Sequence record: PX880101.1
DNA from: a phage
DNA: 64,000 nucleotides
Direction: 5' to 3' (one strand)
Shown here: one piece after another, positions 45,026 to 58,805 of the stretch
Layout of the letters: the number at the start of each line of letters is the position of its first letter
Numbering within the stretch: position 1 is the stretch's first letter
The notes under the pieces: model-generated
What the model was told of the DNA's origin: nothing
The model's input: only the letters and a program-made list of their open reading frames with translations
Databases searched by the model: none
Program-made: the position numbers and the translations under genes

Positions 45026-45130
45026 TTTTTGGGGACGAAATCGATTTTTCGTTTTCAGAAATGGATTTTTAAAATTTCTATATGGGAATATTTTATGGGA
45101 TACTGTTTTATAGGAAATTGTTACGGAGGG

Positions 45131-45148
45131 TAATTAGCATGCTAATTA
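45131..45148. repeat. 18-bp perfect palindrome taattagcatgctaatta
   Basis: Exact inverted symmetry seen directly; possible protein-binding site. Confidence 0.6.
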
Positions 45149-45216
45149 AATTTATTAAATGCGAGGAGTTCTCATTTAGAATTTTGAATGATAATCATTC
45201 TCGTTTGCAGAATAAC

Positions 45217-45258
45217 GGGCAGGCCCGGTGATTGTCTCCCGGCCCCTGTTGCCCCGGC
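45217..45258 (+). repeat. GC-rich repeated element, copy 1
   Basis: gggcaggcccggtgattgtctcccggcccctgttgcc; GC-rich island in AT-rich DNA; near-identical inverted copy at 54969-55013. Confidence 0.55.
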
Positions 45259-45356
45259 TTGTTATTATAGTATCACACAGGACAAAGAAAGCAAGGATTT
45301 TTTGCATAAATTTTTAAATGATAATGATAACCGTTCTCATTTTATGCAGCGCCCAT

Positions 45357-45396
45357 CCCCGGTGGTTGTCTCCCCCGTCACCGGTGCCTGCCGTCC
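45357..45396 (+). repeat. GC-rich repeated element, copy 2 (diverged)
   Basis: ccccggtggttgtctcccccgtcaccggtgcctgccgtcc shares the ggtgRttgtctccc core; the preceding aatgataat…tgcag is also duplicated at 45183 and 45315. Confidence 0.45.
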
Positions 45397-45598
45397 TTTC
45401 GATAGGTATATTTTGCCACCTGGCGGGGCCGCTGTCAACACTTTTCAAAAAAAAATTTCTAACCTGATGCGCTGACCGCTGCAACCTGGCGGGGCCAGCC
45501 TGGCAGGGCCTAACTGACCAGGTAGGAGATAATGAAGGCTTGCAAACCTGGTGGGCCTATGCTATAGGATAGGTAACAATTGAAGAGGAGGTACAAAA

Positions 45599-45775
45599 AT
45601 GGAAGGTAATATGATCCCCCTGGAAAATGTAGCTATTAATGACACTGAGGCTATCGCCCTGGTTGAAAAGGCTATGGCGGGAGCGTTGGAACATAAAGAA
45701 GAGTACGAAAAAATGATGGTTAACCTGGCAGGGGCGGCGGCTGGAGAATTCTACCCAAAAAATAATTTTAACTAA
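45599..45775 (+). CDS. small hypothetical protein (58 aa), first gene of the early array
   Basis: Not in ORF track; ATG follows strong RBS gaagaggagg at 7-nt spacing. Confidence 0.45.
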   Translation: MEGNMIPLENVAINDTEAIALVEKAMAGALEHKEEYEKMMVNLAGAAAGEFYPKNNFN

Positions 45776-45778
45776 TGG

Positions 45779-45807
45779 TTGACAGCTCGGACAGTTCTTG
45801 TTATTCT
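45779..45807 (+). promoter_or_regulatory. sigma70-like early promoter
   Basis: TTGACA-17 nt-TATTCT. Confidence 0.45.
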
Positions 45808-45860
45808 TATCCTCGCAAGGTGAACAACACCACACCAATTAACAGAGAGGATAAAAAATC

Positions 45861-46058
45861 ATGAACGCCTACGGAATTAAAGTACGTCGCAACACTCGCC
45901 AGGTGGTCACCAATCAAGTGATTTGCCGGGTGGATGTAACCATCAACAACGGGCAAGGCCTTTATAAATTTCGTCGCGGTCATAGCTATACCCTGCAGCA
46001 GCTTAACCGTTGCGCCCTGACAAAAGGTCAGATCAACCACTGGTTTAATAAAAAATAA
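45861..46058 (+). CDS. small basic hypothetical protein
   Basis: 65-aa ORF, RBS agagagga. Confidence 0.5.
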   Translation: MNAYGIKVRRNTRQVVTNQVICRVDVTINNGQGLYKFRRGHSYTLQQLNRCALTKGQINHWFNKK

Positions 46059-46061
46059 ATA

Positions 46062-46090
46062 TTGACACGTAGTCTGACACAAAATATACT
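46062..46090 (+). promoter_or_regulatory. sigma70-like early promoter
   Basis: TTGACA-17 nt-TATACT. Confidence 0.55.
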
Positions 46091-46122
46091 TAAATCACAA
46101 AAGACACTAAGAGGATAAAATC

Positions 46123-46521
46123 ATGAAAACTACAACCTTTAATTTTGACAATGCCGACTTCTCTTTTTCTGATGTTAAGAATTGCCGCCGTGATCGTGGA
46201 TTTTACAAGGCTTATAATCTGGTTGGCCTAGACGATGATAATAATTTGCACGAAGTAGCGGAGATCCGGTACTATGCCGCCGCCAGCGGTAACACTAACT
46301 ACTGCGTTTTTTGGATACACGACAACAAGAATAATAAGTACGGTTATACTGGTGGCAAGGCGAGCGGTCACGGTTATGATAAGGCCAATGCAGCACTTGA
46401 GAGCGCGTTAAATGCTATGGGGATCACTGCCAACGGCTGGATCTATGAAGATGAGTTTTTGTCAGCACTTGCTGCCCACCTGGGGTATAAAAAGCACATT
46501 GTGACATGCGCCCACGAATAA
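46123..46521 (+). CDS. hypothetical protein
   Basis: 132-aa ORF, RBS aagagga. Confidence 0.55.
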   Translation: MKTTTFNFDNADFSFSDVKNCRRDRGFYKAYNLVGLDDDNNLHEVAEIRYYAAASGNTNYCVFWIHDNKNNKYGYTGGKASGHGYDKANAALESALNAMGITANGWIYEDEFLSALAAHLGYKKHIVTCAHE

Positions 46522-46531
46522 AAAAAAATTA

Positions 46532-46560
46532 TTGACACGCTGCAAAATTAAAGTAAACTA
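46532..46560 (+). promoter_or_regulatory. sigma70-like early promoter
   Basis: TTGACA-17 nt-TAAACT, followed by leader hairpin ggcggg-aatgttt-cccgcc. Confidence 0.5.
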
Positions 46561-46608
46561 GACACAAAAGGCGGGAATGTTTCCCGCCAACACAAAGGAA
46601 AAAAGATC

Positions 46609-47004
46609 ATGAATAAGAACGTACGCCGCATCATGAACGAACTGGCAAACGATGAAAAAATTATTGATATGCATTTGGTAAACATTTGCCGCCGTTGTGT
46701 AACATATAACAACCGCGCCGCAAAAGCGCGTGAGATGAACGCAAAAGGCACCTTAAAGCCCTTTCAGGTGGTTGTAAAATCTATAACCAGTGCAGCAGAC
46801 CAGGCGCATGACCACAACAACGGGAGCACTAATATTGATCCGTCTTACGTAATGAAACGGATCCGGACTTGCAAGAATAAAGAGCAGGTGTATAACGTCA
46901 TAGATTGGTTGGACTCCCTGGGCGATGTGGTTTATAATAGGTTTTCTGCAGCTATCGAGATCCAGCTTGACAGACTGGACGGGAAAGTACTGAAAACTTA
47001 CTAA
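46609..47004 (+). CDS. hypothetical protein
   Basis: 131-aa ORF, RBS aaggaaaa. Confidence 0.55.
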   Translation: MNKNVRRIMNELANDEKIIDMHLVNICRRCVTYNNRAAKAREMNAKGTLKPFQVVVKSITSAADQAHDHNNGSTNIDPSYVMKRIRTCKNKEQVYNVIDWLDSLGDVVYNRFSAAIEIQLDRLDGKVLKTY

Positions 47005-47052
47005 GTTTATTTTTAGATGGCCTTGACGCCAGGGCCATCAATAAAGTAAACT
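47005..47052 (+). repeat. promoter-stem-loop cassette (PeSL-like), copy A
   Basis: ttatttttagatggccTTGACgccagggccatcaataaagTAAACT: 7-bp stem gatggcc/ggccatc with the -35 hexamer in the loop, -10 18 nt downstream. Confidence 0.6.
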
Positions 47053-47083
47053 AATCCCAGTTAAGCTAAAAGGAGGCTTGAAG

Positions 47084-47203
47084 ATGAGCACTACACGCCA
47101 GCACACAAAGGTAACTATTATCGTTTGCATCATTGGTTATATCCTGGCGCAAATGTTGATGGGTAGCGCCAACGGTGTCGCAAAATTTTTCTTAAACTTT
47201 TAA
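47084..47203 (+). CDS. small membrane peptide (39 aa)
   Basis: Not in ORF track; strong RBS aaaggagg; hydrophobic core IIVCIIGYILAQMLMG. Confidence 0.4.
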   Translation: MSTTRQHTKVTIIVCIIGYILAQMLMGSANGVAKFFLNF

Positions 47204-47231
47204 TTGACAAGCTAACTTAGATCGGTATACT
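47204..47231 (+). promoter_or_regulatory. sigma70-like early promoter
   Basis: TTGACA-16 nt-TATACT, then leader hairpin gggaaaacttccc. Confidence 0.55.
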
Positions 47232-47281
47232 AAACACATCAACGGGAAAACTTCCCAGAACACACAAAAGGAGAAAACACC

Positions 47282-47623
47282 ATGACCACTATGACCGCCG
47301 CAGAAAAAGCTATTCAGATCGCTGCCCTGAAAAAACAGATCGCAGACCTTGAGAATAAGATCGATAACTTTGAAATCGACGAGGACAAGTACGACGAAAA
47401 CTATGATGAATGGTTAGACGAGATCTACGGCGAAATTATGATCGGAAACATTTCTTTTCTTCCGTCGCGTATCCTCAAGGAGCTAGATCCTATCGCTTAC
47501 CGCTGCGGATTTAGCGACTACATCGACAGCCTGGATATTGAGGACGATGAAGAATACCAGGAATTACAGACAGAGTTGGAAGAAGCAAAAGAAGAGCTTG
47601 CGGAGCTGGAAGAAAACGAGTAA
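47282..47623 (+). CDS. highly acidic protein; candidate DNA-mimic/anti-restriction factor
   Basis: 113 aa with very high Asp/Glu content (…DIEDDEEYQELQTELEEAKEELAELEENE); RBS aaaggag. Confidence 0.5.
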   Translation: MTTMTAAEKAIQIAALKKQIADLENKIDNFEIDEDKYDENYDEWLDEIYGEIMIGNISFLPSRILKELDPIAYRCGFSDYIDSLDIEDDEEYQELQTELEEAKEELAELEENE

Positions 47624-47671
47624 GATTATTTTTAGATGGCCTTGACTCCAGGGCCATCAATAAAGTAAACT
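47624..47671 (+). repeat. promoter-stem-loop cassette (PeSL-like), copy B
   Basis: gattatttttagatggccTTGACTccagggccatcaataaagTAAACT; one mismatch to copy A. Confidence 0.6.
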
Positions 47672-47712
47672 TTATACTGTTAACACTGAACTAATGCATA
47701 GGAGTTAAAACC

Positions 47713-47958
47713 ATGGCAGCACTAATCACTAAATATTACGCCCCTACCAACACCAAAAGCGCCCGTATCATGGTAAAAGGCTTCGGACGTAAAAAGGTTT
47801 ACACCTGGGATTATGCCTTAGACACGGAAGACAACTACACCAACGCGATGACAGATTTTATTAATGAGCTGAACACGCGGATCTTGACAAATTATAAAAT
47901 TACCGATATTGCCTATATAGGGGAAGGCGGGATCTGTTTTGTCGGTATCGTCAAATAA
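47713..47958 (+). CDS. hypothetical protein
   Basis: 81-aa ORF, RBS aggag. Confidence 0.5.
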   Translation: MAALITKYYAPTNTKSARIMVKGFGRKKVYTWDYALDTEDNYTNAMTDFINELNTRILTNYKITDIAYIGEGGICFVGIVK

Positions 47959-48016
47959 ACTGTTTTTTCGGTGGTCCTGGTAGCAGGGCCATCTATAAAG
48001 ATAGTTTATCAATACA

Positions 48017-48388
48017 ATGAAAGGAGAAAGTAACATGATCAGTGGGGCAAGTTTTATTATTGGCGCTATTGCTACGGCTTTAATTGTAAACAAGATCCAA
48101 TCTAAAAACGAAAAAGAGAGCAACGCGCTCACAGAATACCCATTTTGGATATTCAACGACAATGAAGACTACATTATCAAGTACAAGAATGAGAAGGGCG
48201 ACCAGGTAACACCGCGACCGATCCCGGCCTACAAGATGCAAGAAACACTATACCGCCTAAAGGCTGGAGGCGCAAAAATCGTAGACTTTTGGGGATATGA
48301 TTGCAAGGATCAGGAGGTTATAAAACGGCGTATCCGGGCTATTCAGGCCAATATTGAAGTTAGCAAGGGGGGAATATATGAAGATTAA
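48017..48388 (+). CDS. hypothetical protein with N-terminal hydrophobic segment
   Basis: 123 aa, RBS aaaggag; preceded by a degenerate PeSL-like hairpin (47971-48000). Confidence 0.5.
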   Translation: MKGESNMISGASFIIGAIATALIVNKIQSKNEKESNALTEYPFWIFNDNEDYIIKYKNEKGDQVTPRPIPAYKMQETLYRLKAGGAKIVDFWGYDCKDQEVIKRRIRAIQANIEVSKGGIYED

Positions 48389-48575
48389 TTTTGAGAAGAT
48401 TGTAAAGCGATCTCATGATTCCGAAGAGCTGCCGGAACGCCGCCAGCGTAACAATAAACTGAATAAGCCAAAAAGATTTGGGAAGATCTGGCGGAATCAT
48501 TATGATCGTAAATTGCCGGGCCTCCTTTTGGAACGTGAACGGCAGGCGGAACGATACCGCCACAAAGGCAACTAA
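48378..48575 (+). CDS. small basic hypothetical protein
   Basis: ATG 48378 after RBS aagggggg (ORF open from 48354). Confidence 0.4.
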   Translation: MKINFEKIVKRSHDSEELPERRQRNNKLNKPKRFGKIWRNHYDRKLPGLLLERERQAERYRHKGN

Positions 48576-48583
48576 CAACCAAC

Positions 48584-48612
48584 GCCCCGCCATCGTGCGG
48601 GGCTTTTTATTT
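48584..48612 (+). terminator. intrinsic terminator
   Basis: gccccgc-catcgt-gcggggc followed by tttttattt. Confidence 0.65.
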
Positions 48613-48755
48613 CTACCCTACGAATAGCGCCCCTGGTTGGCCCTGTAAGCGCCAAAAAGGCCCCACCTATGCAATCGCCCCCTTTAACCTGAAAACATCG
48701 CTTAGGGCCGTTTTATGGCGTTAAAAATATCATTGACAGTGATTTTATTTAAAGC

Positions 48756-48783
48756 TTGACATCTTAAACAGGTTAGCTATACT
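48756..48783 (+). promoter_or_regulatory. sigma70-like early promoter
   Basis: TTGACA-16 nt-TATACT; a second TTGACA lies 23 nt upstream. Confidence 0.55.
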
Positions 48784-48815
48784 AACCACATCAAAGAGAG
48801 AAAGGAGTAAACGCC

Positions 48816-49076
48816 ATGCGTAAATTAAAAAATTTTGATAAAGTTGATGTTGTCCTGAATAATTTTTACTACTGCAACAACAAGGCCATTTGGTGGCGTG
48901 ATAGTTCCACCGATAAAGTCAAGGCGCGCTTTCTCCAGGGGCACTGGCAAGGCCGCCCAGTGATTAAAATCATGGGGCAATTGGTAGCGTTTAAAAATTG
49001 CCGCCGTGTTGATGACGTTGAGGAGATTTTAAACATTTTGCGCCACAATAATTTAAAAAATAGTGTTGACAAGTAA
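48816..49076 (+). CDS. hypothetical protein
   Basis: 86-aa ORF, RBS aaaggag. Confidence 0.5.
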   Translation: MRKLKNFDKVDVVLNNFYYCNNKAIWWRDSSTDKVKARFLQGHWQGRPVIKIMGQLVAFKNCRRVDDVEEILNILRHNNLKNSVDK

Positions 49077-49093
49077 ATCTCAATAAGTATAAT
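49066..49093 (+). promoter_or_regulatory. sigma70-like early promoter
   Basis: TTGACA-16 nt-TATAAT overlapping the stop of the upstream gene; leader hairpin ggcgggaaaacttaccgcc. Confidence 0.55.
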
Positions 49094-49150
49094 TAAACAC
49101 ACAGGCGGGAAAACTTACCGCCACTAACAAAGAAAACAGGAGAAAATATC

Positions 49151-49774
49151 ATGACCACCGTTAACATTACCACAGGTTACAATTTATCTTTCGACGTGCT
49201 GACCGACGAACAAAAAGAAAAAGCCATTGAAATGGTACGCGAAAGAGAAGAACACAGCGGGGATGACTTTTTTGCAGAAAGTGTAATTGAACACTACAAA
49301 GAATATATCTTTCCAGAGTACGGCCTTGAAGATACCGAAGTACATTGGTCCGGCTTTTGGTGCCAGGGTGACGGCGCGTCAATCAGTGCTGAAAACGTGG
49401 ATTTAGAAAAATTTTTGCGTAAAGTAAAGGCCCTGACCAAGTTCCGATCAATTCGTCACTTGTTCGGCACAATGCACGATGGCGAGTTATCAGCCAGTGT
49501 TGAACGCGACAAGTACAGCCATTACAGCCATGAAAACACTGTAAGCGGATACATTGATACCACCTGGCTAGATCTGACCGCCAAACAAGAAAACAAAGTG
49601 GAAGACCTGGAAGAGCTGATCACCGAGACGGTACGGGAGCTATCCCGCAAGGTTTACGTAGACCTGGAGGAGGCCTATCTAGAACAGTTCACTACCGAAA
49701 ACCTGATCGGCCTTATTGAGGCCAATGATTGGCGGTTTGATGTGGATGAATATGGAGAGATGAGTTTTTCATAA
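49151..49774 (+). CDS. acidic hypothetical protein
   Basis: 207-aa ORF, RBS caggaga; net acidic. Confidence 0.55.
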   Translation: MTTVNITTGYNLSFDVLTDEQKEKAIEMVREREEHSGDDFFAESVIEHYKEYIFPEYGLEDTEVHWSGFWCQGDGASISAENVDLEKFLRKVKALTKFRSIRHLFGTMHDGELSASVERDKYSHYSHENTVSGYIDTTWLDLTAKQENKVEDLEELITETVRELSRKVYVDLEEAYLEQFTTENLIGLIEANDWRFDVDEYGEMSFS

Positions 49775-49782
49775 ATAAAGTG

Positions 49783-49810
49783 TTGCAATAATCTAAAAAC
49801 CTGCTATATT
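49783..49810 (+). promoter_or_regulatory. sigma70-like early promoter
   Basis: TTGCAA-16 nt-TATATT, then leader hairpin ggggcaagacgtttgcccc. Confidence 0.45.
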
Positions 49811-49865
49811 AAAACTCAAGGGGGGGCAAGACGTTTGCCCCACACAAAACAAAGAGGAAAACATT

Positions 49866-50246
49866 ATGAAAAACACTACTAAAGCTATTGACACCGTTAT
49901 GTTTAACCTGGTTACCTTTCGCGAGGATATGAAAGATCTTCCACGTGAAACAGTGTGCGATCACATTGAAAACTATCGCAAACTAATCAAAGAGTTGCCT
50001 TTAAAACGTGACCAGTATGCGGCTAACGCTATGCTCAACGCCATGATCAAAAAGATGATTCAGTGTGATTTAACCCTGGCCTATGATTATGCAGGTGGTC
50101 GTTTTGCAGTATACAATCAGCCCGTGCCTGGTATGAGCACCACCGAAGAATTGCACGCGTTAAATCTGAAACAAGATGTATGGGATAACATGCCCCGCGT
50201 GGTGGTGTGGGCAGAAAGCGGAAAGATTTACGGCGATAATTTTTAA
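49866..50246 (+). CDS. hypothetical protein
   Basis: 126-aa ORF, RBS agaggaaaa. Confidence 0.55.
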   Translation: MKNTTKAIDTVMFNLVTFREDMKDLPRETVCDHIENYRKLIKELPLKRDQYAANAMLNAMIKKMIQCDLTLAYDYAGGRFAVYNQPVPGMSTTEELHALNLKQDVWDNMPRVVVWAESGKIYGDNF

Positions 50247-50256
50247 TCAGGTAACA

Positions 50257-50284
50257 GGCGGCATATTTGCCGCCTTATTGTTAA
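50257..50284 (+). terminator. intrinsic terminator/attenuator
   Basis: ggcggc-atattt-gccgcc followed by ttattgtt. Confidence 0.5.
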
Positions 50285-50310
50285 ACAGAACTGCAAAAGA
50301 GGTACATAGA

Positions 50311-50682
50311 ATGGAATTTATTATTTTGGCTGTAGTAGTTGCCTTGTTCAACGCCTGGATCGCTGGCAAGATAGGTAGATCCGCTTTTCTATGGTTTGTT
50401 ATATCTATTTTCCTGGGAGTGGTTGCAACTATTGTATTGGTTATCCTTGCAATTGTTGACAAGGGCGATAATAGAAAGGGTAAAGTGTTTTCCGACCTGT
50501 ATGACGCACAAACGTTTGTCAACGCCTATTATAGTGATCTTCCAGTCTCCCTACGCTGCAGCCTGGCACAACAGGTTTTTGATGAGGCTAAAACCAGAGA
50601 CCAAGCCCATGAGATATGTTTAACTGAAGCGGATCGCCTATTTGAGAGGAATAGAAAATATGTGGACCAGCCGTTTAAATAA
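50311..50682 (+). CDS. membrane protein with two predicted TM helices
   Basis: ATG 50311 after RBS aaagagg (ORF open from 50176); MEFIILAVVVALFNAWIAG and FLWFVISIFLGVVATIVLVILAIV. Confidence 0.5.
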   Translation: MEFIILAVVVALFNAWIAGKIGRSAFLWFVISIFLGVVATIVLVILAIVDKGDNRKGKVFSDLYDAQTFVNAYYSDLPVSLRCSLAQQVFDEAKTRDQAHEICLTEADRLFERNRKYVDQPFK

Positions 50683-50792
50683 CGCCACGTTAATTAATCC
50701 CTTTAGTGAAGATTTGAAGCCAGCCGCCTGGCGTGACGGATTCAATAACGAACGCTTTATTTTCAGGCCTGATCTTGAGGAATTTTATAACA

Positions 50793-50918
50793 ATGGATCG
50801 AACAACAGCGGAGATAATTTTTCTTGTGGTGTGCGTGGTGATAGGACTCCTGGGGGCCATTGTAAACCACGTCACTACTAACAGGAGGGAAGGGGGAGAC
50901 GATGACAACCAAGGATAA
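50793..50918 (+). CDS. small membrane peptide (41 aa)
   Basis: Hydrophobic core IIFLVVCVVIGLLGAIV; an alternative overlapping frame (50660-50881) cannot be excluded. Confidence 0.25.
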   Translation: MDRTTAEIIFLVVCVVIGLLGAIVNHVTTNRREGGDDDNQG

Positions 50919-51021
50919 GCCATGCGCTGATAAGGTGCGCCGTGTTATGGTATGGCTTGAGATTATCGCCCTTGAAATATTGTTAGGCGTAGGGATGTAC
51001 TTTATCGCTGTAAGTAACTAA
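50902..51021 (+). CDS. small membrane peptide (39 aa)
   Basis: Not in ORF track; RBS aggagggaaggggga; hydrophobic core VMVWLEIIALEILLGVGMYFIAV. Confidence 0.3.
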   Translation: MTTKDKPCADKVRRVMVWLEIIALEILLGVGMYFIAVSN

Positions 51022-51025
51022 GAGC

Positions 51026-51053
51026 GGCCCCCGATCATGGGGGCCTATCTTTT
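51026..51053 (+). terminator. intrinsic terminator
   Basis: ggccccc-gatcat-gggggcc followed by tatctttt. Confidence 0.65.
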
Positions 51054-51075
51054 AAAAAATTTTTCTTCCGGGGTG

Positions 51076-51103
51076 TTGCAATCCGGTCCGGAATGTGGAT
51101 AAT
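51076..51103 (+). promoter_or_regulatory. sigma70-like early promoter
   Basis: TTGCAA-16 nt-GATAAT, then leader hairpin ggggagctaatcccc. Confidence 0.45.
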
Positions 51104-51159
51104 AACAATCAACGGGGAGCTAATCCCCACCACCACAAAAACCAGAAAGGAGAAACAAA

Positions 51160-51360
51160 ATGAGCAACAATATCCGCGTTATTAACTTCAAAAAAGAAGA
51201 AAAAATTGCCGTGCTGATTGACGGTCAAGAAATCTTCAAGGGCGACTATGAAGATCATCAAACGGCGATTAGTATCACTCGCGTGATTGGTTATCATAAT
51301 TTCTACCCCCAAGGCGCTGAGGCAGCAGTTAAACGAATCAAAGAGATTGTAGGCCTGTAA
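51160..51360 (+). CDS. hypothetical protein
   Basis: 66-aa ORF, RBS aaaggaga. Confidence 0.5.
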   Translation: MSNNIRVINFKKEEKIAVLIDGQEIFKGDYEDHQTAISITRVIGYHNFYPQGAEAAVKRIKEIVGL

Positions 51361-51362
51361 AA

Positions 51363-51409
51363 TTTATTTTTAGATGGCCTTGACTTCAGGGCCATCGATA
51401 AAGTAAATT
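51363..51409 (+). repeat. promoter-stem-loop cassette (PeSL-like), copy C
   Basis: tttatttttagatggccTTGACTtcagggccatcgataaagTAAATT; same architecture as copies A and B. Confidence 0.6.
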
Positions 51410-51444
51410 TAAACCCTGTTAAAATACCACGCAGTTAACAAGGA

Positions 51445-51753
51445 GTGATAGACATGTTTATCCAGGCTAATAATCTTTATTTCTTTGATGGTCAGATCGT
51501 AGATGGTGTGGAAGTGGAGATCACCGGGTGCCCTGGCGGTCAGGCTATGACTTTTCGGAATAATGCCTTTGATGATTCTCATATCGTTATGAGAATGGAA
51601 GTTACGAAGCTGGACGACAAGAAAACACTTATTGACTATTCTGTGAAAGATCATCCAGACTACCGCATGATCCATGGTGATTTGTGCATTGTTGACCGTG
51701 ACAAGGTGGGCGGCATTGTGATCGCTATTGTGAACGATGTTTTCTCAAACTAA
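51445..51753 (+). CDS. hypothetical protein
   Basis: 102-aa ORF, RBS aaggag. Confidence 0.5.
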   Translation: MIDMFIQANNLYFFDGQIVDGVEVEITGCPGGQAMTFRNNAFDDSHIVMRMEVTKLDDKKTLIDYSVKDHPDYRMIHGDLCIVDRDKVGGIVIAIVNDVFSN

Positions 51754-51930
51754 TTTCAGCAGGCGATTTTATGAAAGTCAAACTATATTACCTTAATGAG
51801 CTTAACCCCCTTGCCCAGGTCCGCGCCCTAGCTAATACCTTGATTTGTGAGAAATCTGTATATTGTGTTGAGCTTAACACGTCTCAAAGGTGGTTACTTT
51901 GACATCCATGCTGCAATCAACGGCCTGAAT

Positions 51931-52110
51931 ATGGAATTTATACGCTTACGTAACAGCCGCCGGAATCTGGCAAGAATGGAACAAGATCCGGCCCACCTTC
52001 GCAAGCTGGTTATTGAAAATCATCTGATGTTTAATGCCGAGGGGGATTATTACCATTTTCACCGCAAACGCTGGTACCGTGGCGGCAATACAGGCAAGAA
52101 TGCAAAATAA
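51931..52110 (+). CDS. small basic hypothetical protein
   Basis: In frame with ORF 51847-52110; start ambiguous (ATG 51847 or 51931); a 43-aa ORF at 51771-51902 is an alternative neighbour. Confidence 0.35.
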   Translation: MEFIRLRNSRRNLARMEQDPAHLRKLVIENHLMFNAEGDYYHFHRKRWYRGGNTGKNAK

Positions 52111-52147
52111 GGCCCCTAGCAGGGCCTGCAGCAATATAATCACATAA

Positions 52148-52179
52148 AGGCCATGCGGTTGCATGGCCTTTATTATTTT
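52148..52179 (+). terminator. intrinsic terminator
   Basis: aggccatgc-ggtt-gcatggcct followed by ttattatttt; preceded by a second hairpin ggcccctagcagggcc. Confidence 0.65.
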
Positions 52180-52227
52180 GGCGTTACAACGGCATACGGG
52201 GCGCTTAAAAAATTTTTAAAGAAGTAC

Positions 52228-52256
52228 TTGCATCATTCCCGACAATATGGATAATA
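52228..52256 (+). promoter_or_regulatory. sigma70-like early promoter
   Basis: TTGCAT-17 nt-ATAATA, then leader hairpin gggggaggccccc. Confidence 0.45.
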
Positions 52257-52312
52257 AGAGTTGTCGAGGGGGAGGCCCCCAATCGTTGACCAGATAGATA
52301 GGAGTTAAAATC

Positions 52313-52597
52313 ATGGCTATTGTTACCGCTGGCGATGTAGTAGAAATGGAAGCAAAATACTTAAAAGCGGGTATGCACATCCTACGGAATGATCAAGAGT
52401 TATTATTAACGATGGTTGACTATAATCACGGCCAGGATTATCCAAGCATCGACTACTTTTTTGAGTATGTTGATGAAGAGTTGAAAGAGGATGAGGCCTA
52501 TTGCGGTGAGTTCTGCAACTTCTTTTGTCCTGATGAGGTTGTAAAGGTTATTTATCAACCTGGCGTAGCTTTCCCGCTGCACGCTATCAATAAATAA
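52313..52597 (+). CDS. hypothetical protein
   Basis: 94-aa ORF, RBS taggag. Confidence 0.5.
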   Translation: MAIVTAGDVVEMEAKYLKAGMHILRNDQELLLTMVDYNHGQDYPSIDYFFEYVDEELKEDEAYCGEFCNFFCPDEVVKVIYQPGVAFPLHAINK

Positions 52598-52652
52598 ACC
52601 TGGCGGGGCCGAAAAGGCCCCCAATTATGAAAATAAAGAGAGGCAAATCATC

Positions 52653-52886
52653 ATGATGGAACAAATTAAACGCGCCGAGGCTATTAATGGCAACGTGATC
52701 TATTTTGTCAGCAAAAACGAAAAAGGCGTACCATATGCGGCAGTAATAGTACAACCTGACGGCGATTATTGGTTTACTGTGTACGGCGCTTATTCTTTTG
52801 GGCGTCCAGTGCATGATAAAATTTTGAAAGTAGCGAACCCTACCGGGAAGAATATCACAGCAGAAAAATTTTTTGAAAATAGTTGA
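52653..52886 (+). CDS. hypothetical protein
   Basis: 77-aa ORF, RBS agagagg; leader hairpin ggggccgaaaaggcccc. Confidence 0.5.
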   Translation: MMEQIKRAEAINGNVIYFVSKNEKGVPYAAVIVQPDGDYWFTVYGAYSFGRPVHDKILKVANPTGKNITAEKFFENS

Positions 52887-52910
52887 CATGACCATATAAG
52901 ACTGTAATAT
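52883..52910 (+). promoter_or_regulatory. sigma70-like early promoter
   Basis: TTGACA-16 nt-TAATAT; the -35 overlaps the stop codon of the upstream gene. Confidence 0.5.
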
Positions 52911-52961
52911 ATAAATCAAAGGGGGCAACGAACCCCACCAACTACAAAGAGGATAAAAATC

Positions 52962-53141
52962 ATGGCTATTATTGCAAAGACTGAGATCGTAGGCTTAGAT
53001 TCTATTCTCCTCGCATATGAGGAAGCTATAGAAATGTATGTGGTTTCCTATGGTGAGTATATCCGTGAATATAAATCTATTGATCTGGCTTTTGAATGTT
53101 ATATCCGCCAGGTTAATAAAGCGTACGATGATTATCGTTAA
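52962..53141 (+). CDS. small hypothetical protein (59 aa)
   Basis: Not in ORF track; RBS aagagga; downstream of promoter and leader hairpin gggggcaacgaacccc. Confidence 0.45.
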   Translation: MAIIAKTEIVGLDSILLAYEEAIEMYVVSYGEYIREYKSIDLAFECYIRQVNKAYDDYR

Positions 53142-53147
53142 AATAGT

Positions 53148-53177
53148 TTGACAACAGCCATCTTACAAAGCATAATA
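53148..53177 (+). promoter_or_regulatory. sigma70-like early promoter
   Basis: TTGACA-18 nt-ATAATA, then leader hairpin ggcggtggaatggtccgcc. Confidence 0.5.
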
Positions 53178-53228
53178 CATAAGGCGGTGGAATGGTCCGC
53201 CACCTGGAACAAAGAAGAGGTAAACACC

Positions 53229-53474
53229 ATGAAAAGCAATAAAGGTTATAACGGTTACAAAAACAAAACTCATTGGAATGTAAGCCTTTGGATTAATAAC
53301 GATGAGTCATTGTACCGGTTGGCCCAAGGCTTTATTAACGCCAATGCTAATCGTAATGATGCGGCGCGGGATATGATGCTTTTTCTGGAGCTAACCGGAC
53401 AAGATAAGACCCCGGACGGCTTCAAGTACAGCACTACGGCGATCCGTGCCGCGATGGTTGGAATGAAACACTAA
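53229..53474 (+). CDS. hypothetical protein
   Basis: ATG 53229 after RBS aagaggtaa (ORF open from 53148, which would overlap the promoter). Confidence 0.5.
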   Translation: MKSNKGYNGYKNKTHWNVSLWINNDESLYRLAQGFINANANRNDAARDMMLFLELTGQDKTPDGFKYSTTAIRAAMVGMKH

Positions 53475-53665
53475 AAGCACATAGCTGCCTTACCCTGGGG
53501 CTGTGGTAGCGGCCCCATGAATAAGGTTACTAACAGAAGAGAATAAACACCGTGAAACAGAAATTAATCGATGCAGTGATCTTGGTTATTGCCCTGGGTA
53601 TTGGCCTGATTGCAACCATGTCTAATATGATCTTGTCTTCCAACGGTATCTGGTGAGGTTGGCAA

Positions 53666-53881
53666 ATGATCACTAACAAAACAGGCAAAACGGAATTTTT
53701 ACGCAACTTACAGATCGGCAAGCCTGAGATCTGGTACTGCACTAAAACACCGCGTGACGAAATGAAAGACTTCACCGCCACGCTGCAACGGGTAAAGATA
53801 TCTATCACGCAGAAAAAGGCCTTACTAGTGGTGGAAGGGGAGATCCCCCAAACCGTTGTTATAGTTGAGCGTACAGCATAG
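53666..53881 (+). CDS. hypothetical protein
   Basis: 71-aa ORF, RBS gaggttgg; a 34-aa hydrophobic peptide ORF (53551-53655, GTG start) may precede it. Confidence 0.45.
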   Translation: MITNKTGKTEFLRNLQIGKPEIWYCTKTPRDEMKDFTATLQRVKISITQKKALLVVEGEIPQTVVIVERTA

Positions 53882-53972
53882 TTTAATTTATACAGATACC
53901 TGAAAATTAACCAACAAAGCATAAACAGGCGGTTACCGCCGCCTTAAACGTAGCAGAAAGAGGATAGACACA

Positions 53973-54257
53973 ATGAAAAAGATGATCGCAGTGGTTACCC
54001 TGGTTGTTGGACTTAATGCGCCTGTAATGGCTAAAGAGCTGGCAAAAGAGGTTAATCTAACGGATATTCATGCCGTCAATCAAATCGGGGTTACTTATCG
54101 CTTATGCCTTGCCGCTAAAACTTTTAAGGACGGCACAACAGAGTACTACGGATTCGAGGGTATCCGGTGCGGTGAGCTTGCTCGCGACCTTAAGGAAGAT
54201 CCAGACCTGGAGGAACTGCCCATAACCGTGAACGGGAAAACTTACGTGAACCGTTAA
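53973..54257 (+). CDS. secreted/periplasmic small protein
   Basis: 94 aa; signal-peptide-like N-terminus MKKMIAVVTLVVGLNAPVMA; RBS aagagga. Confidence 0.5.
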   Translation: MKKMIAVVTLVVGLNAPVMAKELAKEVNLTDIHAVNQIGVTYRLCLAAKTFKDGTTEYYGFEGIRCGELARDLKEDPDLEELPITVNGKTYVNR

Positions 54258-54259
54258 CC

Positions 54260-54394
54260 ATGAGAAAGATAATTATTACCATGGGGATCGTGGCGGCAAT
54301 GTTGGCGATCTTTCCCTTTATGGTTAGGTATGTGCTGATTAATGTTGTCCTGGTAGTCAGCGATCTGGTGTTATATATTAACTCATTGTTTTAG
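54260..54394 (+). CDS. small membrane peptide (44 aa)
   Basis: Not in ORF track; hydrophobic MGIVAAMLAIFPFMVRYVLINVVLVVSDLVLYI; 2 nt after the upstream stop. Confidence 0.3.
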   Translation: MRKIIITMGIVAAMLAIFPFMVRYVLINVVLVVSDLVLYINSLF

Positions 54395-54402
54395 GCGCGA
54401 TA

Positions 54403-54594
54403 ATGACAGCGGAAGAAGTTAAAAAAGTACTGGCGGTACTGCGTTATCATAATCATTGCAAGGTGAAGAATGATCCTGATTATCTTGATTCATCCCTTGA
54501 AGAGGATACACTACAAGCCATAAGCAACATGCAAGAATTGCTTAAGCGTATGACAGAGAAAAACCGACCGGACTACATAGGGGGTAAAATATGA
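54403..54594 (+). CDS. hypothetical protein
   Basis: 63-aa ORF. Confidence 0.4.
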   Translation: MTAEEVKKVLAVLRYHNHCKVKNDPDYLDSSLEEDTLQAISNMQELLKRMTEKNRPDYIGGKI

Positions 54595-54902
54595 TCGCTA
54601 TTACGCCAACCGTTTTAGATTGGTATCGGCAACGCATAGCGCCTCCGCTGGCTATCTTCAAAGATGCGGAAGCAAAACAACGCCGGATCTCAATACATGA
54701 GATCATCAACCTTAACGCTGGAGGCACACCATACCGCCCAGGACCTGGCCGTGAGATGGACAATACATTGGCGATCCTGAAGATACGCCGTAAACGGTCC
54801 TCCCTTACGCTGGATTCATTACACACAATGCAGTCTCCGTTCCAGGTGACTGGGAAACGGATCGCCAGGTCCTGGACAAAGGCCAATGACCGGACCGTAT
54901 AA
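54591..54902 (+). CDS. basic hypothetical protein
   Basis: 103-aa ORF, 4-nt overlap with upstream gene. Confidence 0.45.
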   Translation: MIAITPTVLDWYRQRIAPPLAIFKDAEAKQRRISIHEIINLNAGGTPYRPGPGREMDNTLAILKIRRKRSSLTLDSLHTMQSPFQVTGKRIARSWTKANDRTV

Positions 54903-54968
54903 ATAAAAAGTGTTTTGGTACTGATTTTGGGGTTGACTTGTTCGGCCCCTTTTGCTATTCTTATTAAA

Positions 54969-55013
54969 CGGGCGGCACTTGGGAACAGGGGGAGACAATC
55001 ACCAGGCCTGCCT
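54969..55013 (-). repeat. GC-rich repeated element, copy 3 (inverted relative to copy 1)
   Basis: Reverse complement reads caggcaggcctggtgattgtctccccctgttcccaag, about 30 of 34 identical to copy 1 at 45217. Confidence 0.55.
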
Positions 55014-55037
55014 GTCATATAAGAACTATAAAAACCG

Positions 55038-55067
55038 TTGACATCTGCCAGGGGGGTGGGGTAACAT
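55038..55067 (+). promoter_or_regulatory. sigma70-like early promoter
   Basis: TTGACA-18 nt-TAACAT, then leader hairpin gggcaaaggtgccc. Confidence 0.4.
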
Positions 55068-55121
55068 TTATCTTGAAGGGGCAAAGGTGCCCACACAACA
55101 ACCAGAAGAGAGGAAAACACT

Positions 55122-55394
55122 ATGTCAAGCTGGATTAATCAAGAAGTCGAATCACGTTTTAATGCTATTTGGGATCTCATCGAAAAAGAAGACGGCACAT
55201 CAAGCCCCTACCTCAACAATTTGGAATTCCATTTTGTGGAAGCGATGAACGCAGAACATGATCACGAAGGTGGTGCGGACGAGTTCGCTAAAGGGTATGG
55301 CTTCAATAATGCCAACGAAATGATCGAGGCGGTTGTACTCCAGGCTGAGGAAGATTATCAATTAAAAACGCTTGAATTCTGCCGCCGTAAGTAA
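55122..55394 (+). CDS. acidic hypothetical protein
   Basis: 90-aa ORF, RBS agagagga. Confidence 0.5.
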   Translation: MSSWINQEVESRFNAIWDLIEKEDGTSSPYLNNLEFHFVEAMNAEHDHEGGADEFAKGYGFNNANEMIEAVVLQAEEDYQLKTLEFCRRK

Positions 55395-55454
55395 TAGGAT
55401 AATGACACGGGCCGGGAGGCCCACTAATCAGAACCACACAAAGAGGTAAACATC

Positions 55455-55718
55455 ATGAAACGTCTTGATCAGCTTAAACTAGTTCAGTACATGGCCTACA
55501 AAGTTCTTGAAGTCCAAAAAGGTAGCAAAAAAGAGGTTTGCGAGAAAGCATATAAGATCTTTACCCGTAAAAAAGATGATTGGATGTTACGCCAGACCAA
55601 AAAAGCCGATATCCTGGGATACCTGGAAGAAGAGATCCGACTTGAAGAACAAGAAGAGATCCGCCGTAGTGAGGCAGATTATCAGGCAGCTTGGGAAAAC
55701 TGGATGAGTAACAAATAA
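55455..55718 (+). CDS. hypothetical protein
   Basis: 87-aa ORF, RBS aagaggtaa; leader hairpin gggccgggaggccc. Confidence 0.5.
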   Translation: MKRLDQLKLVQYMAYKVLEVQKGSKKEVCEKAYKIFTRKKDDWMLRQTKKADILGYLEEEIRLEEQEEIRRSEADYQAAWENWMSNK

Positions 55719-55785
55719 TACAACAAGTTACATGGTCAGGGGCAATAAAGCCCCTTGATCGCATAAAAAATTATGCTATCCTTGG

Positions 55786-55814
55786 TTGACAAGGATCGTC
55801 AGTTTTGCTATATT
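55786..55814 (+). promoter_or_regulatory. sigma70-like early promoter
   Basis: TTGACA-17 nt-TATATT. Confidence 0.55.
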
Positions 55815-55862
55815 CTTTTTGAAGGGAAGTTGTAAGAAAATTAACTAAGAGGTAAAAACACC

Positions 55863-56282
55863 ATGAACATTAAATCTAATAATCCGGCATATAGCTTTGA
55901 TAACGCTTTTTGTCACGGTCCGGCGGCGAAAGGATTCGAAATCGATGGTAAACTAATTATTGTCAATGTTGACGGGGAAGAGGTTGCAGTATATCCGGTG
56001 GCAGACGTAAAAAGCCGTTTACAATGCCGCATTGATGTTACCGCCTATCAGCTTGATCCGGTCCGCATAGTTGCCCTGGTCCTGGAAGAAGAAATTAAAG
56101 CCATGCACCATAGCAACAGATTTATTGGTGACGCGCAGGATAATATGAAAGTATGCCGCCATAAAGTTAATGAAGTGCTTAAAGAGTACGGCTATAAAGA
56201 TCTTATGATCAAACGTGAGGAAAAATTCCGCTACCGTAACGACCTGGCAAATCGAATCTATGAAATATACGAATCATTATAA
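55863..56282 (+). CDS. hypothetical protein, last gene of the rightward early array
   Basis: 139-aa ORF, RBS aagaggtaa; followed by a terminator. Confidence 0.55.
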   Translation: MNIKSNNPAYSFDNAFCHGPAAKGFEIDGKLIIVNVDGEEVAVYPVADVKSRLQCRIDVTAYQLDPVRIVALVLEEEIKAMHHSNRFIGDAQDNMKVCRHKVNEVLKEYGYKDLMIKREEKFRYRNDLANRIYEIYESL

Positions 56283-56300
56283 TTTCTTAACTAAACTATC

Positions 56301-56328
56301 AGGGGCTTTAAAAGGCCCCTTTCTTTTT
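56301..56328 (+). terminator. intrinsic terminator closing the early array
   Basis: aggggc-tttaaaag-gcccct followed by ttcttttt. Confidence 0.65.
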
Positions 56329-58805
56329 GTCTGTATTTCTCCTACCACAAACGGCCCAGCCTGGCAAGTGGAATAATTGACTAGCCATCAATCCCACACA
56401 CTGTACAAATATACATGGAAAATAACTATTGCATAATTTTTCATTGTGTGGTAGCAAGTCCATTTTTACCCGTTTTCTCTCTCAAAATTGCACGTAATGC
56501 CGCTATTGCACAAATTTTAACCTGATGCACATCTCCAATATCTTGTCAACAACTAAAAATCTTTATAAGTCATACACTTACACAGCATCGAAAGCGTGTT
56601 CTACGCGAAAAATCGAGTATAACTATAGCCGCCAGATCTCAGAATTCACGTACGCACGCCATTCTATAGCCTGCAAAGTATTTATTCCAACCACAGAATA
56701 ACGGAATAGTCAATACCTGCATAAAATAATTATTCGTGTAAACTGCATAACATAAATCAGCTCAGGTGTCAACATTTTTCGTAAACAGTCCGAAATTATC
56801 ACGATGAGTTATCATAAACAGAGAAATCTTTAGTCGTCTAATGTTTACTGTACATTACTATACTGACTGGAATCATTAGATGACTAAGAGAAAGATAAGA
56901 AATAATTAATAATGTAATTATTTTACCTGTAACAATAAGGCAACTATGCAAACGAATGGCATGGCGCGACGGAGTCGCGACATAATATAAAAGCAGTAAC
57001 CATCACCCCCGTGATAGTTTGTCTGCAATCTATTAATCAGATCATAGTTGCCTTGTATTCAGTTAATCATGACATAATAAGCAAGGCAACTATAGATCTG
57101 CTAATAGTTGCCCTGCTTTTATATTATGTCATAGAAACACCCGAAGGGGTGACCAAAGGTCACCTGGCATGGCCAGTGAAAGATTATTAACTTGTTAATT
57201 GTTAACTTGCTAATTGTTTTCATGCAAACGAATGTCATGGCTTATCCTATCTGTGTAAACAGTTAAGGTGTAAACTATCCAGGCGTAAACAGTCTATGCG
57301 GGAACAATCTATACGTGAACAGTGAAACATGAAATAATAACAATCGTTATTGTGTCGAAAGTGTATAAGGTGTCATAGTATGTCAGACAAGTTTTTCTCC
57401 TCTTTGTCAAGTGCTGCATGAAAATTTACAAACTGGTATGGTAGCATTTTTGCGGCCCTGTTTACATTCAGTTGTGTATGTATAACCCTTGTTGTGTGGG
57501 CGTTTAGACGTCTGGACGGTTGGAAGTCTACAGGTCAATATCTAATCTATTGGCTGCTAACTATATCCCACACAAATAGTAAGAAATACAATTGTTATGT
57601 GAGTAAACGGTAACTCATGTTATCAATCCCTGTATGGATCGCCAGTGGTGCGCATAATGGGTATTATGTTAAATTGCCCGTAATGATAACTATTCTCACA
57701 ATGATAGGTATTCTCATTCACTCCCACAAGATAGGTTGCAAATGTTGTGCCACTGTGTGAACGGCCTCACCTATTAATTTGCCTCACTGCCTCGATATTT
57801 GAGAATTGTTATAAGAATGAGAAGTATTCCCATTTCGTCCGCCTGGCAGCACTCCAGTCGCTACCGCTCATGACAGGGCAGAACTGGGTCCATTCAGATA
57901 TTTCTGGCTGACTCTTCAGGTCTGTGTGGGAAAAGCCAACCTCTCCGGCGGGGCAGGGGTAGGTCAATTAAAAAATTTACGTGGTGTATGAAGAGCCCTT
58001 CAGGTAAGGCATGTATTATGGGATGAAACACCCTTCAGGCAATGATATTTGTGGGTGGGATATTTGCTGGAAAGCCAGATATGACGGGACTCCTGGCGGG
58101 GCAGGGGTAGTACAGACAGGGGAAATATGGTGGATGTAGTTGGGTGGATTGATCAGGCAGGTAGAGTATGGAATATGTTACAAGTATGTTAAATATGGAG
58201 GATGAATATCTGTAGGATTTGTGTGTAAAATCAAAGACTTAAGTGGTGTTGTGGTATTTTCTATAAATAATTCAAGTTTAATAGGTAATATTTGTCTCTA
58301 TCCGCTTTGTGTGGTAAACAAATTCAGATGGTGTTGGTTTACAAGTGTATACATAATATACAAATTAAAGATACAAGAAACCCCCCTCCCCCTTCGGCTA
58401 CCATTCACCTTTTCCTCTGACTGGTACTTAAACACTTATTCAGACTCTTCAGGTTATCACCCATATATCATATGGCAGTGACTGGTGTCCTCCGGCCCCT
58501 CTTTCGTCACCCGTCCGCTTCGCCATGCTAATGCCATAGCCAACGGTTCGGTTGTTCACCCTGTTCACTCAGGTGTATCTCCATACCCCTTCAAACCGAA
58601 GAGAACAGAAAACCCGAATTACTCGGTAAAAGAAAAGAGAAGAACTTAATTTTATCAGGATAGGCAAGAATGTCAAGGCATGACTGCTCACTAAACAAGC
58701 AAACAGTCATGTGTGGAAGGTAAGTGATTGTGGTGGTAGGAAATTTAGTTGAAAGATGTGTTATAGGTGCGCTTCCAGCACTTTAGCCGGGCAGCTAATT
58801 GTGTG
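56329..58805. other. 2.5-kb ORF-free, repeat-dense region between convergent gene blocks
   Basis: No ORF with an RBS. 18-bp inverted repeat gacataatataaaagcag (56979-56996 and 57113-57130); hairpins cgcgac-gga-gtcgcg (56965) and ggtgacc-aaa-ggtcacc (57148); direct repeats atgcaaacgaatgNcatggc (56946, 57231); gtaaacagt-like iterons (57252-57325); ctggcggggcaggggtag twice (57935, 58093). Confidence 0.5.

Follow-up and report, generated by a model that had tools for sequence, protein, structure and literature searches.

Known predicted membrane-protein genes and one probably overprinted frame in the short-gene array of an rV5-like coliphage

The stretch of phage DNA analysed here (64,000 nucleotides (nt), sequence record PX880101.1; hereafter the window) carries, between positions 47,084 and 54,394, six small open reading frames (ORFs) with hydrophobic products, termed A, B, D, E, F and G, which had been singled out from the sequence as small membrane peptides of an early gene array. 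As a whole, they are best explained, with somewhat more than an even chance, as genes for small inner-membrane proteins, with ORF D overprinted on an annotated gene. The observation itself is unremarkable and for the most part documented already: five of the six ORFs have been on record as membrane proteins of phage rV5 since 2013. Two points are worth adding, namely that ORF D is probably the real coding frame where it overlaps the tail of the annotated gp182-type protein, and that the holin label carried by ORF B lacks support.

The source of the window is a Vequintavirus, an rV5-like coliphage. Bases 46000-55500 match 303 phage records, the closest relative being Escherichia phage A6-1 (99.8% identity, 100% coverage), followed by AlexBoehm/Bas56 (97.9%) and then many other members of Vequintavirus. 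In AlexBoehm, the array comes after rIIA/rIIB and the genes for helicase, primase and DNA polymerase. It is made up of some 55 short plus-strand genes, almost all labelled 'hypothetical protein', and ends at an ORF-poor stretch of about 2.5 kb, past which the genes lie on the opposite strand. The equivalent stretch of rV5 is covered by the transcription unit 'genes 10-1-238-164', and the same non-coding gap was described there (Kropinski et al. 2013, Virol J 10:76). The six ORFs are listed below with two neighbours, the annotated ORF C and a homologue of rV5 gp171.

47084-47203, plus strand: ORF A, a predicted single-pass membrane peptide of 39 amino acids (aa); ATG 6 nt after the Shine-Dalgarno (SD) sequence AAGGAGG; orthologue of rV5 gp193.
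50311-50682, plus strand: ORF B, 123 aa, a predicted two-helix anchor followed by a C-terminal domain; ATG, SD AAGAGG; orthologue of rV5 gp183.
50660-50881, plus strand: ORF C, the annotated gp182 homologue, 73 aa (81 aa in other genomes); PHROG 12060.
50793-50918, plus strand: ORF D, a predicted 41-aa single-pass peptide (MDRTTAEIIFLVVCVVIGLLGAIV...); ATG, GAGGA 11 nt upstream; +1 frame relative to ORF C.
50902-51021, plus strand: ORF E, 39 aa; ATG, SD GGAGGGAAGGGGGAG; orthologue of rV5 gp181.
53552-53656, plus strand: ORF F, a predicted 34-aa single-pass peptide; GTG, weak SD GAAGAGAA; orthologue of rV5 gp173.
53973-54257, plus strand: gp171 homologue, 94 aa, with a signal-peptide-like N-terminus; coupled to ORF G.
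54260-54394, plus strand: ORF G, 44 aa, its hydrophobic part forming one long segment or two short ones; ATG, no SD; orthologue of rV5 gp170.

All six ORFs are present in the sequence as originally predicted, and five of the coordinate pairs were right; ORF F had been placed at 53551-53655, one base too low. Several of the ORFs had been credited with strong SD sites, which holds for ORFs A and E, whereas the sites of ORFs B (AAGAGG) and D (GAGGA) are moderate, that of ORF F is weak and ORF G has none. ORF D does not stand free, as it overlaps the annotated ORF C in another frame. The overlaps amount to 23 nt between ORFs B and C, 89 nt between C and D, and 17 nt between D and E, and ORF F ends 9 nt before the start of the gene for a gp172 homologue (71 aa). 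The ATG of ORF G lies 2 nt past the upstream stop codon (TAA-CC-ATG) and has no SD, implying translational coupling.

The maxima of Kyte-Doolittle hydropathy over 19 residues ranged from 2.08 to 3.13 across the six ORFs, with 2.89 for ORF D. On the plus strand of 46000-55500, exactly four ORFs of 30-60 aa reached a 19-residue hydropathy of at least 2.0, and all four were located wholly inside gaps between larger plus-strand genes, whereas the four equally hydrophobic ORFs of the minus strand all overlapped plus-strand genes. This difference in placement sets the candidates apart from chance hydrophobic frames.

We aligned each ORF with its flanks among relatives collected from GenBank, IMG/VR, ENA and Logan (19 long and 15 short loci) and scored substitutions as synonymous or not in all three frames, with about 10-34 related genomes per test. 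ORF B had an omega of 0.05-0.10 (p=3.5e-52; other frames 1.4-3.2), ORF E of 0.19-0.23 (p from 2.6e-5 to 1.7e-10; other frames about 1.0-1.45), ORF F of about 0.24 (p=0.009; other frames about 1.6) and ORF A of about 0.30, with a synonymous excess at p=1e-4 and 0.8-1.7 in the other frames. For ORF G, omega was about 0.55 (p=0.006), the other frames giving 0.64 (p=0.045) and 1.03, and the gp171 homologue had an omega of about 0.21 (p=2e-12).

The length of the ORFs was kept in all aligned relatives carrying the respective locus, ORF A being intact in all of them. Searches with tblastn found ORF A in 113 phage records, ORFs C, D and E in 119 each, and ORF F in 72 at E<=1, a count limited by its length. 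ORF G was found in 152 records, 41 of them at full length and the remainder as weak N-terminal matches in Phapecoctavirus-type phages. Among phages, the tblastn matches of ORFs A, C, D and E were confined to Vequintavirus, and ORFs B through E were all present in every Vequintavirus locus examined. Frame-specific selection, conservation and hydropathy all agree with the original prediction of small peptides with predicted transmembrane (TM) helices in this array, and ORFs A, B, E, F and G very probably encode genuine translated membrane peptides.

Most of these genes already have a place in the literature. Table S3 of the rV5 report lists as 'membrane protein', by TMHMM and Phobius, gp193 (39 aa, one transmembrane domain (TMD)), gp183 (123 aa, 1-2 TMD), gp181 (39 aa, 1 TMD), gp173 (46 aa) and gp170 (44 aa, 1 TMD), gives gp182 as 81 aa with no comment, and has no counterpart of ORF D (Kropinski et al. 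2013). Full-length matches to PHROG families were obtained for ORF A (16391, E=1.8e-31), ORF B (13090, 3e-83), ORF E (13629, 7.6e-32), ORF F (14631, 1.5e-22) and ORF G (16005, 1.5e-26), all of which are unknown-function families, and ORF D matched no PHROG family. The gene order is collinear with that of AlexBoehm, Murica, inoa, I29, rV5_ev168 and FV3 as well as with the rV5 coordinates in Table S3. Annotation in GenBank is uneven, as ORFs A and G are without a feature in several records matched by tblastn, ORF G also in the nearest relative A6-1.

The individual peptides differ in where they vary. ORF E consists of a basic N-tail and a near-invariant TM segment with two glutamates (VWLEIIALEILLGVGMYFIAV), and its amino-acid changes are limited to the N-tail except for one V-to-I. 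ORF F starts with GTG here and with ATG in every relative examined; it occurs as two alleles, 52% identical, that have the C-tail ATM(S/A)N(M/V)ILSS(N/H)GIG in common, and the second allele is also found in Phapecoctavirus REC. ORFs F and G and the intervening 71-aa and 94-aa genes are all present in REC at about 80% nucleotide identity, ORF G being unannotated there. In Murica, JLBYU08 and MiataMamis, ORF G is missing, and the upstream protein is a 96-aa allele ending in ...NRQQ. The best match of ORF G to Pfam DUF7396 had 16.1 bits (E=0.013), below the gathering threshold of 27 bits; weak matches to this family occurred in 7 of 12 G variants, none reaching the cutoff. The gp171 homologue, which was outside the original list, has a hydrophobic N-terminus (MKKMIAVVTLVVGLNAPVMA) resembling a Sec signal peptide and is conserved in both Vequintavirus and Phapecoctavirus. 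Its AlphaFold2 model is a compact beta/alpha domain with a predicted local distance difference test (pLDDT) score of about 90 after residue 22; a profile search of PDB sequences found nothing, and Foldseek searches against PDB and BFVD returned its own orthologues only and no informative match.

The relation between ORF D and ORF C is where the present analysis departs from existing annotation. ORF C is annotated in AlexBoehm, Murica, inoa and others, I29 instead has a minus-strand ORF, and ime annotates nothing at this place. None of the GenBank records examined annotates ORF D; among JGI gene calls, P0012 and P0021 follow the D frame. The C and D frames are open across the sequences examined and in 119 tblastn records, with the third frame rich in stops. 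Among 31 sequences, the ATG of ORF D is invariant and the 41-aa ORF is intact in most. We counted parsimony events on 26 haplotypes. From 50683 to 50792, the C frame had an omega of 0.31 (p=8e-6), the other frames giving 0.79 and 0.98. From 50793 to 50881, the omega of the C frame was 1.02, that of the D frame 0.54 (p=0.006, or p=0.003 with the test carried on to 50901) and that of the third frame 0.80. A version based on allele counts, with fewer sequences, reproduced the same frame switch. Only the first 44 or so codons of ORF C, to about 50792, show coding constraint.

The kind of replacement also separates the two frames. In the D frame, replacements are exchanges among V, M, I, A and G by which the helix stays hydrophobic, whereas those in the tail of ORF C are radical (SG to DR, G to D/N, R to G/N/S, C to W/R). 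Between the ATG of ORF D and a run of five T (T5; 50818-50822, plus strand) inside the C/D overlap, the D frame has five synonymous and five conservative changes and the C frame two synonymous and eight mostly radical ones; this conservatism of the D frame indicates that constraint begins at the ATG of ORF D. The C-terminus of ORF D, GGDDD(N/T)QG, overlaps the ribosome-binding site and start codon of ORF E; its conservation is therefore uninformative, and it was left out of the main test. In phage pangalan (L018), an indel in the homologue of 50880-50918 swaps the D tail KGGDDDTQG for ERGRR; the C-terminus of ORF D is thus not strictly conserved. A 27-nt stretch around the D start (50780-50806), invariant among 13 sequences, was dropped from consideration, having four variable sites among 31 sequences. 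We consider it fairly probable that ORF D is a real coding frame translated into a membrane peptide, and the annotated gp182-type protein (PHROG 12060) probably has no constrained sequence in its last third.

It is possible, but doubtful, that ORF D is untranslated and that the gp182-type frame (50660-50881, 73-81 aa) is the sole gene, its C-terminal third being a fast-evolving disordered tail and the constraint in the +1 frame incidental. The C frame is open in all 119 records and was chosen by the GenBank annotators who called a gene there, the statistical evidence for ORF D is of moderate strength (p=0.003-0.036), and the SD of ORF D lies 11 nt from its ATG. Lineages in which a run of T or G has contracted by one base (T4 and G4, described below) have no free-standing ORF D and yet persist in several samples. 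Against this stands the contrast between an omega near 1.0 in the C frame from 50793 on and 0.31 in its first 44 codons, with 0.54 for the D frame and 0.80 for the third frame over the same bases. So do the changes that swap one hydrophobic residue for another in the D frame and are radical in the C tail, the invariant ATG of ORF D, and a hydropathy as high as 2.89. We retain a translated, overprinted ORF D as the preferred reading.

The surroundings fit the early array that the original prediction assumed, being composed of short plus-strand genes with near-consensus sigma-70 promoters downstream of rIIA/rIIB and the replication genes. The array contains 38 promoter-like sites compared with 21.2 +/- 4.5 in shuffles, and the best of them, with a match at 11 or more of the 12 positions, all lie between genes on the plus strand. 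The sigma-70-type promoters and the position after the rII and replication genes fit a predicted early expression by the host RNA polymerase; our literature search found no transcriptome for this phage group. Self-blastn, alignment and a pattern search identified three copies of an intergenic promoter-like element containing a dyad (47016-47052, 47635-47671 and 51373-51409; none expected by chance), which precede ORF A, an 81-aa gene at 47713 and a 99-aa gene at 51454, respectively. About 60 nt are conserved among the copies, in which a 7-bp dyad encloses a -35 of TTGAC(G/T), with a -10 of TAAAC/TT. Its sequence suggests a promoter into which an operator or hairpin is built. The B-C-D-E set is bounded by terminators at 50256-50275 and 51026-51045, the annotation of Murica has a terminator at the place matching the latter, and the set looks like a co-translated membrane module.

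47016-47052, plus strand: element upstream of ORF A, with the dyad GATGGCC-TTGACGCCAG-GGCCATC, the -35 TTGACG in its loop, and then the -10 TAAACT.
51026-51045, plus strand: predicted intrinsic terminator closing B-C-D-E, GGCCCCCGATCATGGGGGCC followed by a T-rich tail, found by a terminator scan.

In this arrangement, ORF A is by itself behind a promoter-like element with a dyad, ORFs B, C, D and E make up an overlapping chain running to one terminator, ORF F is coupled to the gp172 homologue, and ORF G to the signal-peptide-like gp171 homologue. Under the preferred reading, the host RNA polymerase would transcribe the small genes early, and the peptides would insert in the inner membrane with their basic N-tails in the cytoplasm. 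They might bind other membrane or periplasmic proteins rather than act as enzymes. Selection would then act on the short extramembrane tails of ORFs F and A, on the TM helix of ORF E, in which two glutamates are buried, and on a soluble domain carried by interchangeable anchors in ORF B. The roles envisaged at the outset (superinfection exclusion, takeover of the host membrane or of division, toxin-like shut-off) are what would generally be expected of such peptides. As to their role here, we suggest only tentatively that the peptides could modify the infected cell's envelope in an accessory capacity, either by excluding superinfecting phages, as was originally envisaged, or by protecting from envelope-directed attack. 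An envelope role is suggested because the cassette of ORF F, the gp172 and gp171 homologues and ORF G spans subfamilies, is variably present and includes a signal-peptide-like protein.

Several points weigh against this interpretation. Scans of the peptides and their neighbours with Pfam, NCBIfam and PADLOC brought no model to its cutoff, whether of an exclusion, holin, toxin or anti-defence family or of any other, leaving a few weak hits below threshold (ORF G to DUF7396, ORF B to PycTM and DUF805); the fold searches with ORF B and the gp171 homologue gave no informative match. Our literature search brought up no report of transcription timing, translation, membrane insertion or phenotype for these genes in any phage; for the rV5 genes it turned up neither functional studies nor toxicity screens nor ribosome profiling, and a paper on accessory-gene screens omits rV5. 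The substitution counts were made by parsimony or alleles on recombining, closely related genomes, and the p-values are approximate. The TM assignments are based on hydropathy, on AlphaFold helices for ORF B, and on TMHMM and Phobius for the rV5 orthologues. ORFs G and D are weakly constrained, with omega at about 0.55, and the conserved C-terminus of ORF D, coinciding with the signals of ORF E, is no evidence for ORF D. Moreover, ORF F may be weakly expressed here, given its GTG start and poor SD.

The same peptides could instead kill the host or shut it off by depolarising or permeabilising its inner membrane, as type I toxins do; a toxin-like role was also raised at the outset, and we regard this reading as unlikely. 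Their size and single hydrophobic helix resemble Hok, TisB and Ldr, ORF E has two acidic residues within its helix, and the promoter context is of the early type. However, no Pfam toxin family matched, the type I families Hok, Ldr, TisB, Ibs and ShoB being absent at E<=1, and several lineages dispense with ORF G. A phage of 135 kb, dependent on an energised host, would also be harmed by premature depolarisation. An Rfam scan of 44000-59000 at E<=0.1 returned no RNA family.

Programmed +1 frameshifting could join the 44 constrained N-terminal codons of ORF C to the helix of ORF D, so that a product of about 85 aa would be anchored in the membrane. We searched a large protein collection with a hypothetical fusion of the C N-terminus and ORF D, a query built to find fusions, so that discovery was biased, and obtained four 85-aa proteins spanning both frames, whose contigs in public assemblies show four independent 1-nt homopolymer contractions. 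In two independent backgrounds, represented by P0008 (nearest to rV5_ev168; seven contigs, three or more samples) and P0009 (nearest to YN3), the T5 run was contracted to T4. In two others, P0010 (nearest to inoa) and P0011 (nearest to I29), found on contigs L033 and L034, a run of five G inside the overlap (G5; 50852-50856, plus strand) was contracted to G4. The T4 fusions retain most of the helix, the G4 fusions are without a TM helix, and the junctions differ. These variants may be true alleles or assembly errors.

If frameshifting did take place, the T4 variant would be its hard-wired version and the T5 and G5 runs would be places where the locus switches naturally between a pair of proteins and a single fusion; we consider this whole reading quite improbable. 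Selection does move from ORF C to the +1 frame near 50793, although this position is that of the ATG of ORF D and lies upstream of the T5 run; both frames are open and the third is full of stops. TTT_T at 50783-86 follows 2 nt after an SD-like GAGG in a prfB-like geometry, and in-frame 85-aa versions occur in four independent backgrounds. In both candidate sites, TTT_TAT (50783) and TTT_TCT (50819), however, the next 0-frame codon is an ordinary sense codon, neither stop nor rare, and ORF D possesses an invariant ATG and an SD-like motif of its own. The G4 fusions resemble ordinary frameshift alleles or errors of assembly, and such variants occur beyond the C/D locus, as in the frameshifted ORF B allele P0005. 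The T5 run as a frameshift site explaining the pattern of selection was rejected because the D-frame constraint starts upstream of it; the natural T4 fusion is not what selection preserves.

ORF B calls for separate consideration, as it is labelled 'putative holin' in BASEL records (AlexBoehm, CarlMeissner and others). The two TM segments originally assigned to it are matched in the AlphaFold2 model (mean pLDDT 72), which predicts hydrophobic helices at residues 2-20 and 25-54, followed by helices at 63-73, 79-92 and 96-118. Its conserved part is a three-helix C-domain of about 70 aa, and the homologues P0006 and P0007 keep this domain with one unrelated TM helix in place of the two. A wider homologue search retrieved vequintavirus-type proteins only. 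A profile search of PDB sequences with ORF B found nothing, and Foldseek with the model against PDB and BFVD found only its own orthologues, the matches to annotated holins having E>2 and a probability of at most 0.07. No holin model was found for ORF B in Pfam at E<=1 or in NCBIfam.

These findings bear on the idea that B-C-D-E is a lysis module, with ORF B as the holin and antiholin-like or spanin-like roles for the small peptides, which we hold to be very unlikely. ORF B is alike to holins in its small size and its two N-terminal TM helices, and the pair overlapping in the +1 frame recalls Rz/Rz1, in which a second ORF also lies over the 3' part of a gene with both frames open. ORF D, however, has no lipobox (...FLV(V/M)C..., with V or M at -1), and ORF C, with the polar N-terminus MWTSRLNNATL, has neither an N-terminal TM helix nor a long periplasmic coiled coil; its tail is unconstrained here and not dual-coding. 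We therefore rejected a spanin reading of C/D. Unlike a holin with a short charged tail, ORF B has a conserved helical domain of 70 aa, which is soluble, and the number of its anchor helices varies between one and two. The BASEL label is heuristic, holins having been assigned by scanning small TM proteins where no homologue existed. In rV5, the putative holin is gp129, and the lysin gp89 is located about 40 kb from the position of ORF B (Kropinski et al. 2013). The set also lies in the sigma-70 promoter array, apart from the late genes. The label 'putative holin' on ORF B is unsupported.

That the ORFs are chance open frames in AT-rich spacers encoding nothing is hardly credible: four hydrophobic short ORFs do occur by chance on the minus strand, ORF F has a weak SD and GTG and ORF G no SD, and ORFs A and G are unannotated in several GenBank records, but ORFs A, E, F and G have their synonymous excess in the predicted frame only, their lengths are kept in 113-152 records (72 at E<=1 for ORF F), ORFs F and G are shared by two subfamilies at about 80% nucleotide identity, the gaps are filled exactly, and ORFs A and E have strong SDs.

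Further observations were made along the window. Of the 31 genes in 45861-56282, about eight are predicted to be membrane or exported proteins, counting ORF D and the signal-peptide protein, and all five genes shorter than 50 aa are among them. Two more proteins with predicted membrane anchors were absent from the original list, namely one of 117 aa with an N-terminal hydrophobic helix (48035-48388) and one of 109 aa (44252-44581) that matches rV5 gp200, itself listed as 'membrane protein, 1 TMD'. At 51771-52110, the homologue of AlexBoehm bas56_0115 (116 aa) has an 11-nt deletion near 51878, in which GCCATGCGTGA is gone, and is split into a 43-aa ORF and an 87-aa ORF with a GTG start; it is likely a pseudogene or a truncated gene in this phage. 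At 54952-55041, AlexBoehm annotates a 29-aa ORF with a TTG start (bas56_0126) within a 219-nt gap that also contains a terminator (54929-54949) and a promoter-like site (55038-55067); this looks like a doubtful gene call.

Outside the coding array, 44600-45600 is poor in ORFs, contains imperfect direct repeats of 65-74 nt at 44884-45069 and has no Rfam match; a 17-nt motif, CCCGGTGATTGTCTCCC, occurs at 45224 and 45358 on the plus strand and again at 54990 on the minus strand. The ORF-poor gap where the plus- and minus-strand arrays converge (56283-58800, about 2.5 kb, GC content 0.39) corresponds to the 'non-coding' box of rV5 (104013-106618), and neither tRNA nor Rfam families were found in it. 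A group I intron at 35345-35580 (Rfam RF00028, 64.7 bits) matches the place at which the DNA polymerase gene of AlexBoehm is annotated as split, with a homing endonuclease.

The meaning of these results is mostly housekeeping: they concern known predicted membrane proteins and one point of annotation, and make no long-standing question newly testable. If the functions were determined, the few phage membrane micro-proteins that have been characterised would gain new members.

Compared with known systems, the peptides stand nearest to their rV5 counterparts, and resemblances to better-studied proteins are looser. T4 Imm, T4 Sp, HK97 gp15 and P22 SieA are small membrane proteins for superinfection exclusion. 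The peptides here would be alike to Imm and Sp as small inner-membrane or periplasm-facing proteins of a virulent myovirus, made early, and the pairing of the gp171 homologue with ORF G, a signal peptide next to a membrane peptide, would fit an action on the envelope side. They are half the size, however, and no Imm_superinfect or Sie family was found in Pfam at E<=1, nor any NCBIfam hit or fold match. AcrZ, MgtS, Hok, TisB, Ldr and Ibs have one hydrophobic helix in fewer than 50 aa, are often unannotated, and bind larger membrane proteins or form pores. The present peptides share no homology with these bacterial small membrane proteins and type I toxins, and differ from them in being encoded by a phage and in having an SD or coupling instead of antisense-RNA control. 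With gp193, gp183, gp181, gp173 and gp170 of rV5, by contrast, they agree in full-length matches, gene order and size (39, 123, 39, 34/46 and 44 aa). These are the same genes, and nothing essential differs between the two phages, ORF F having a GTG start and a terminal Trp here.

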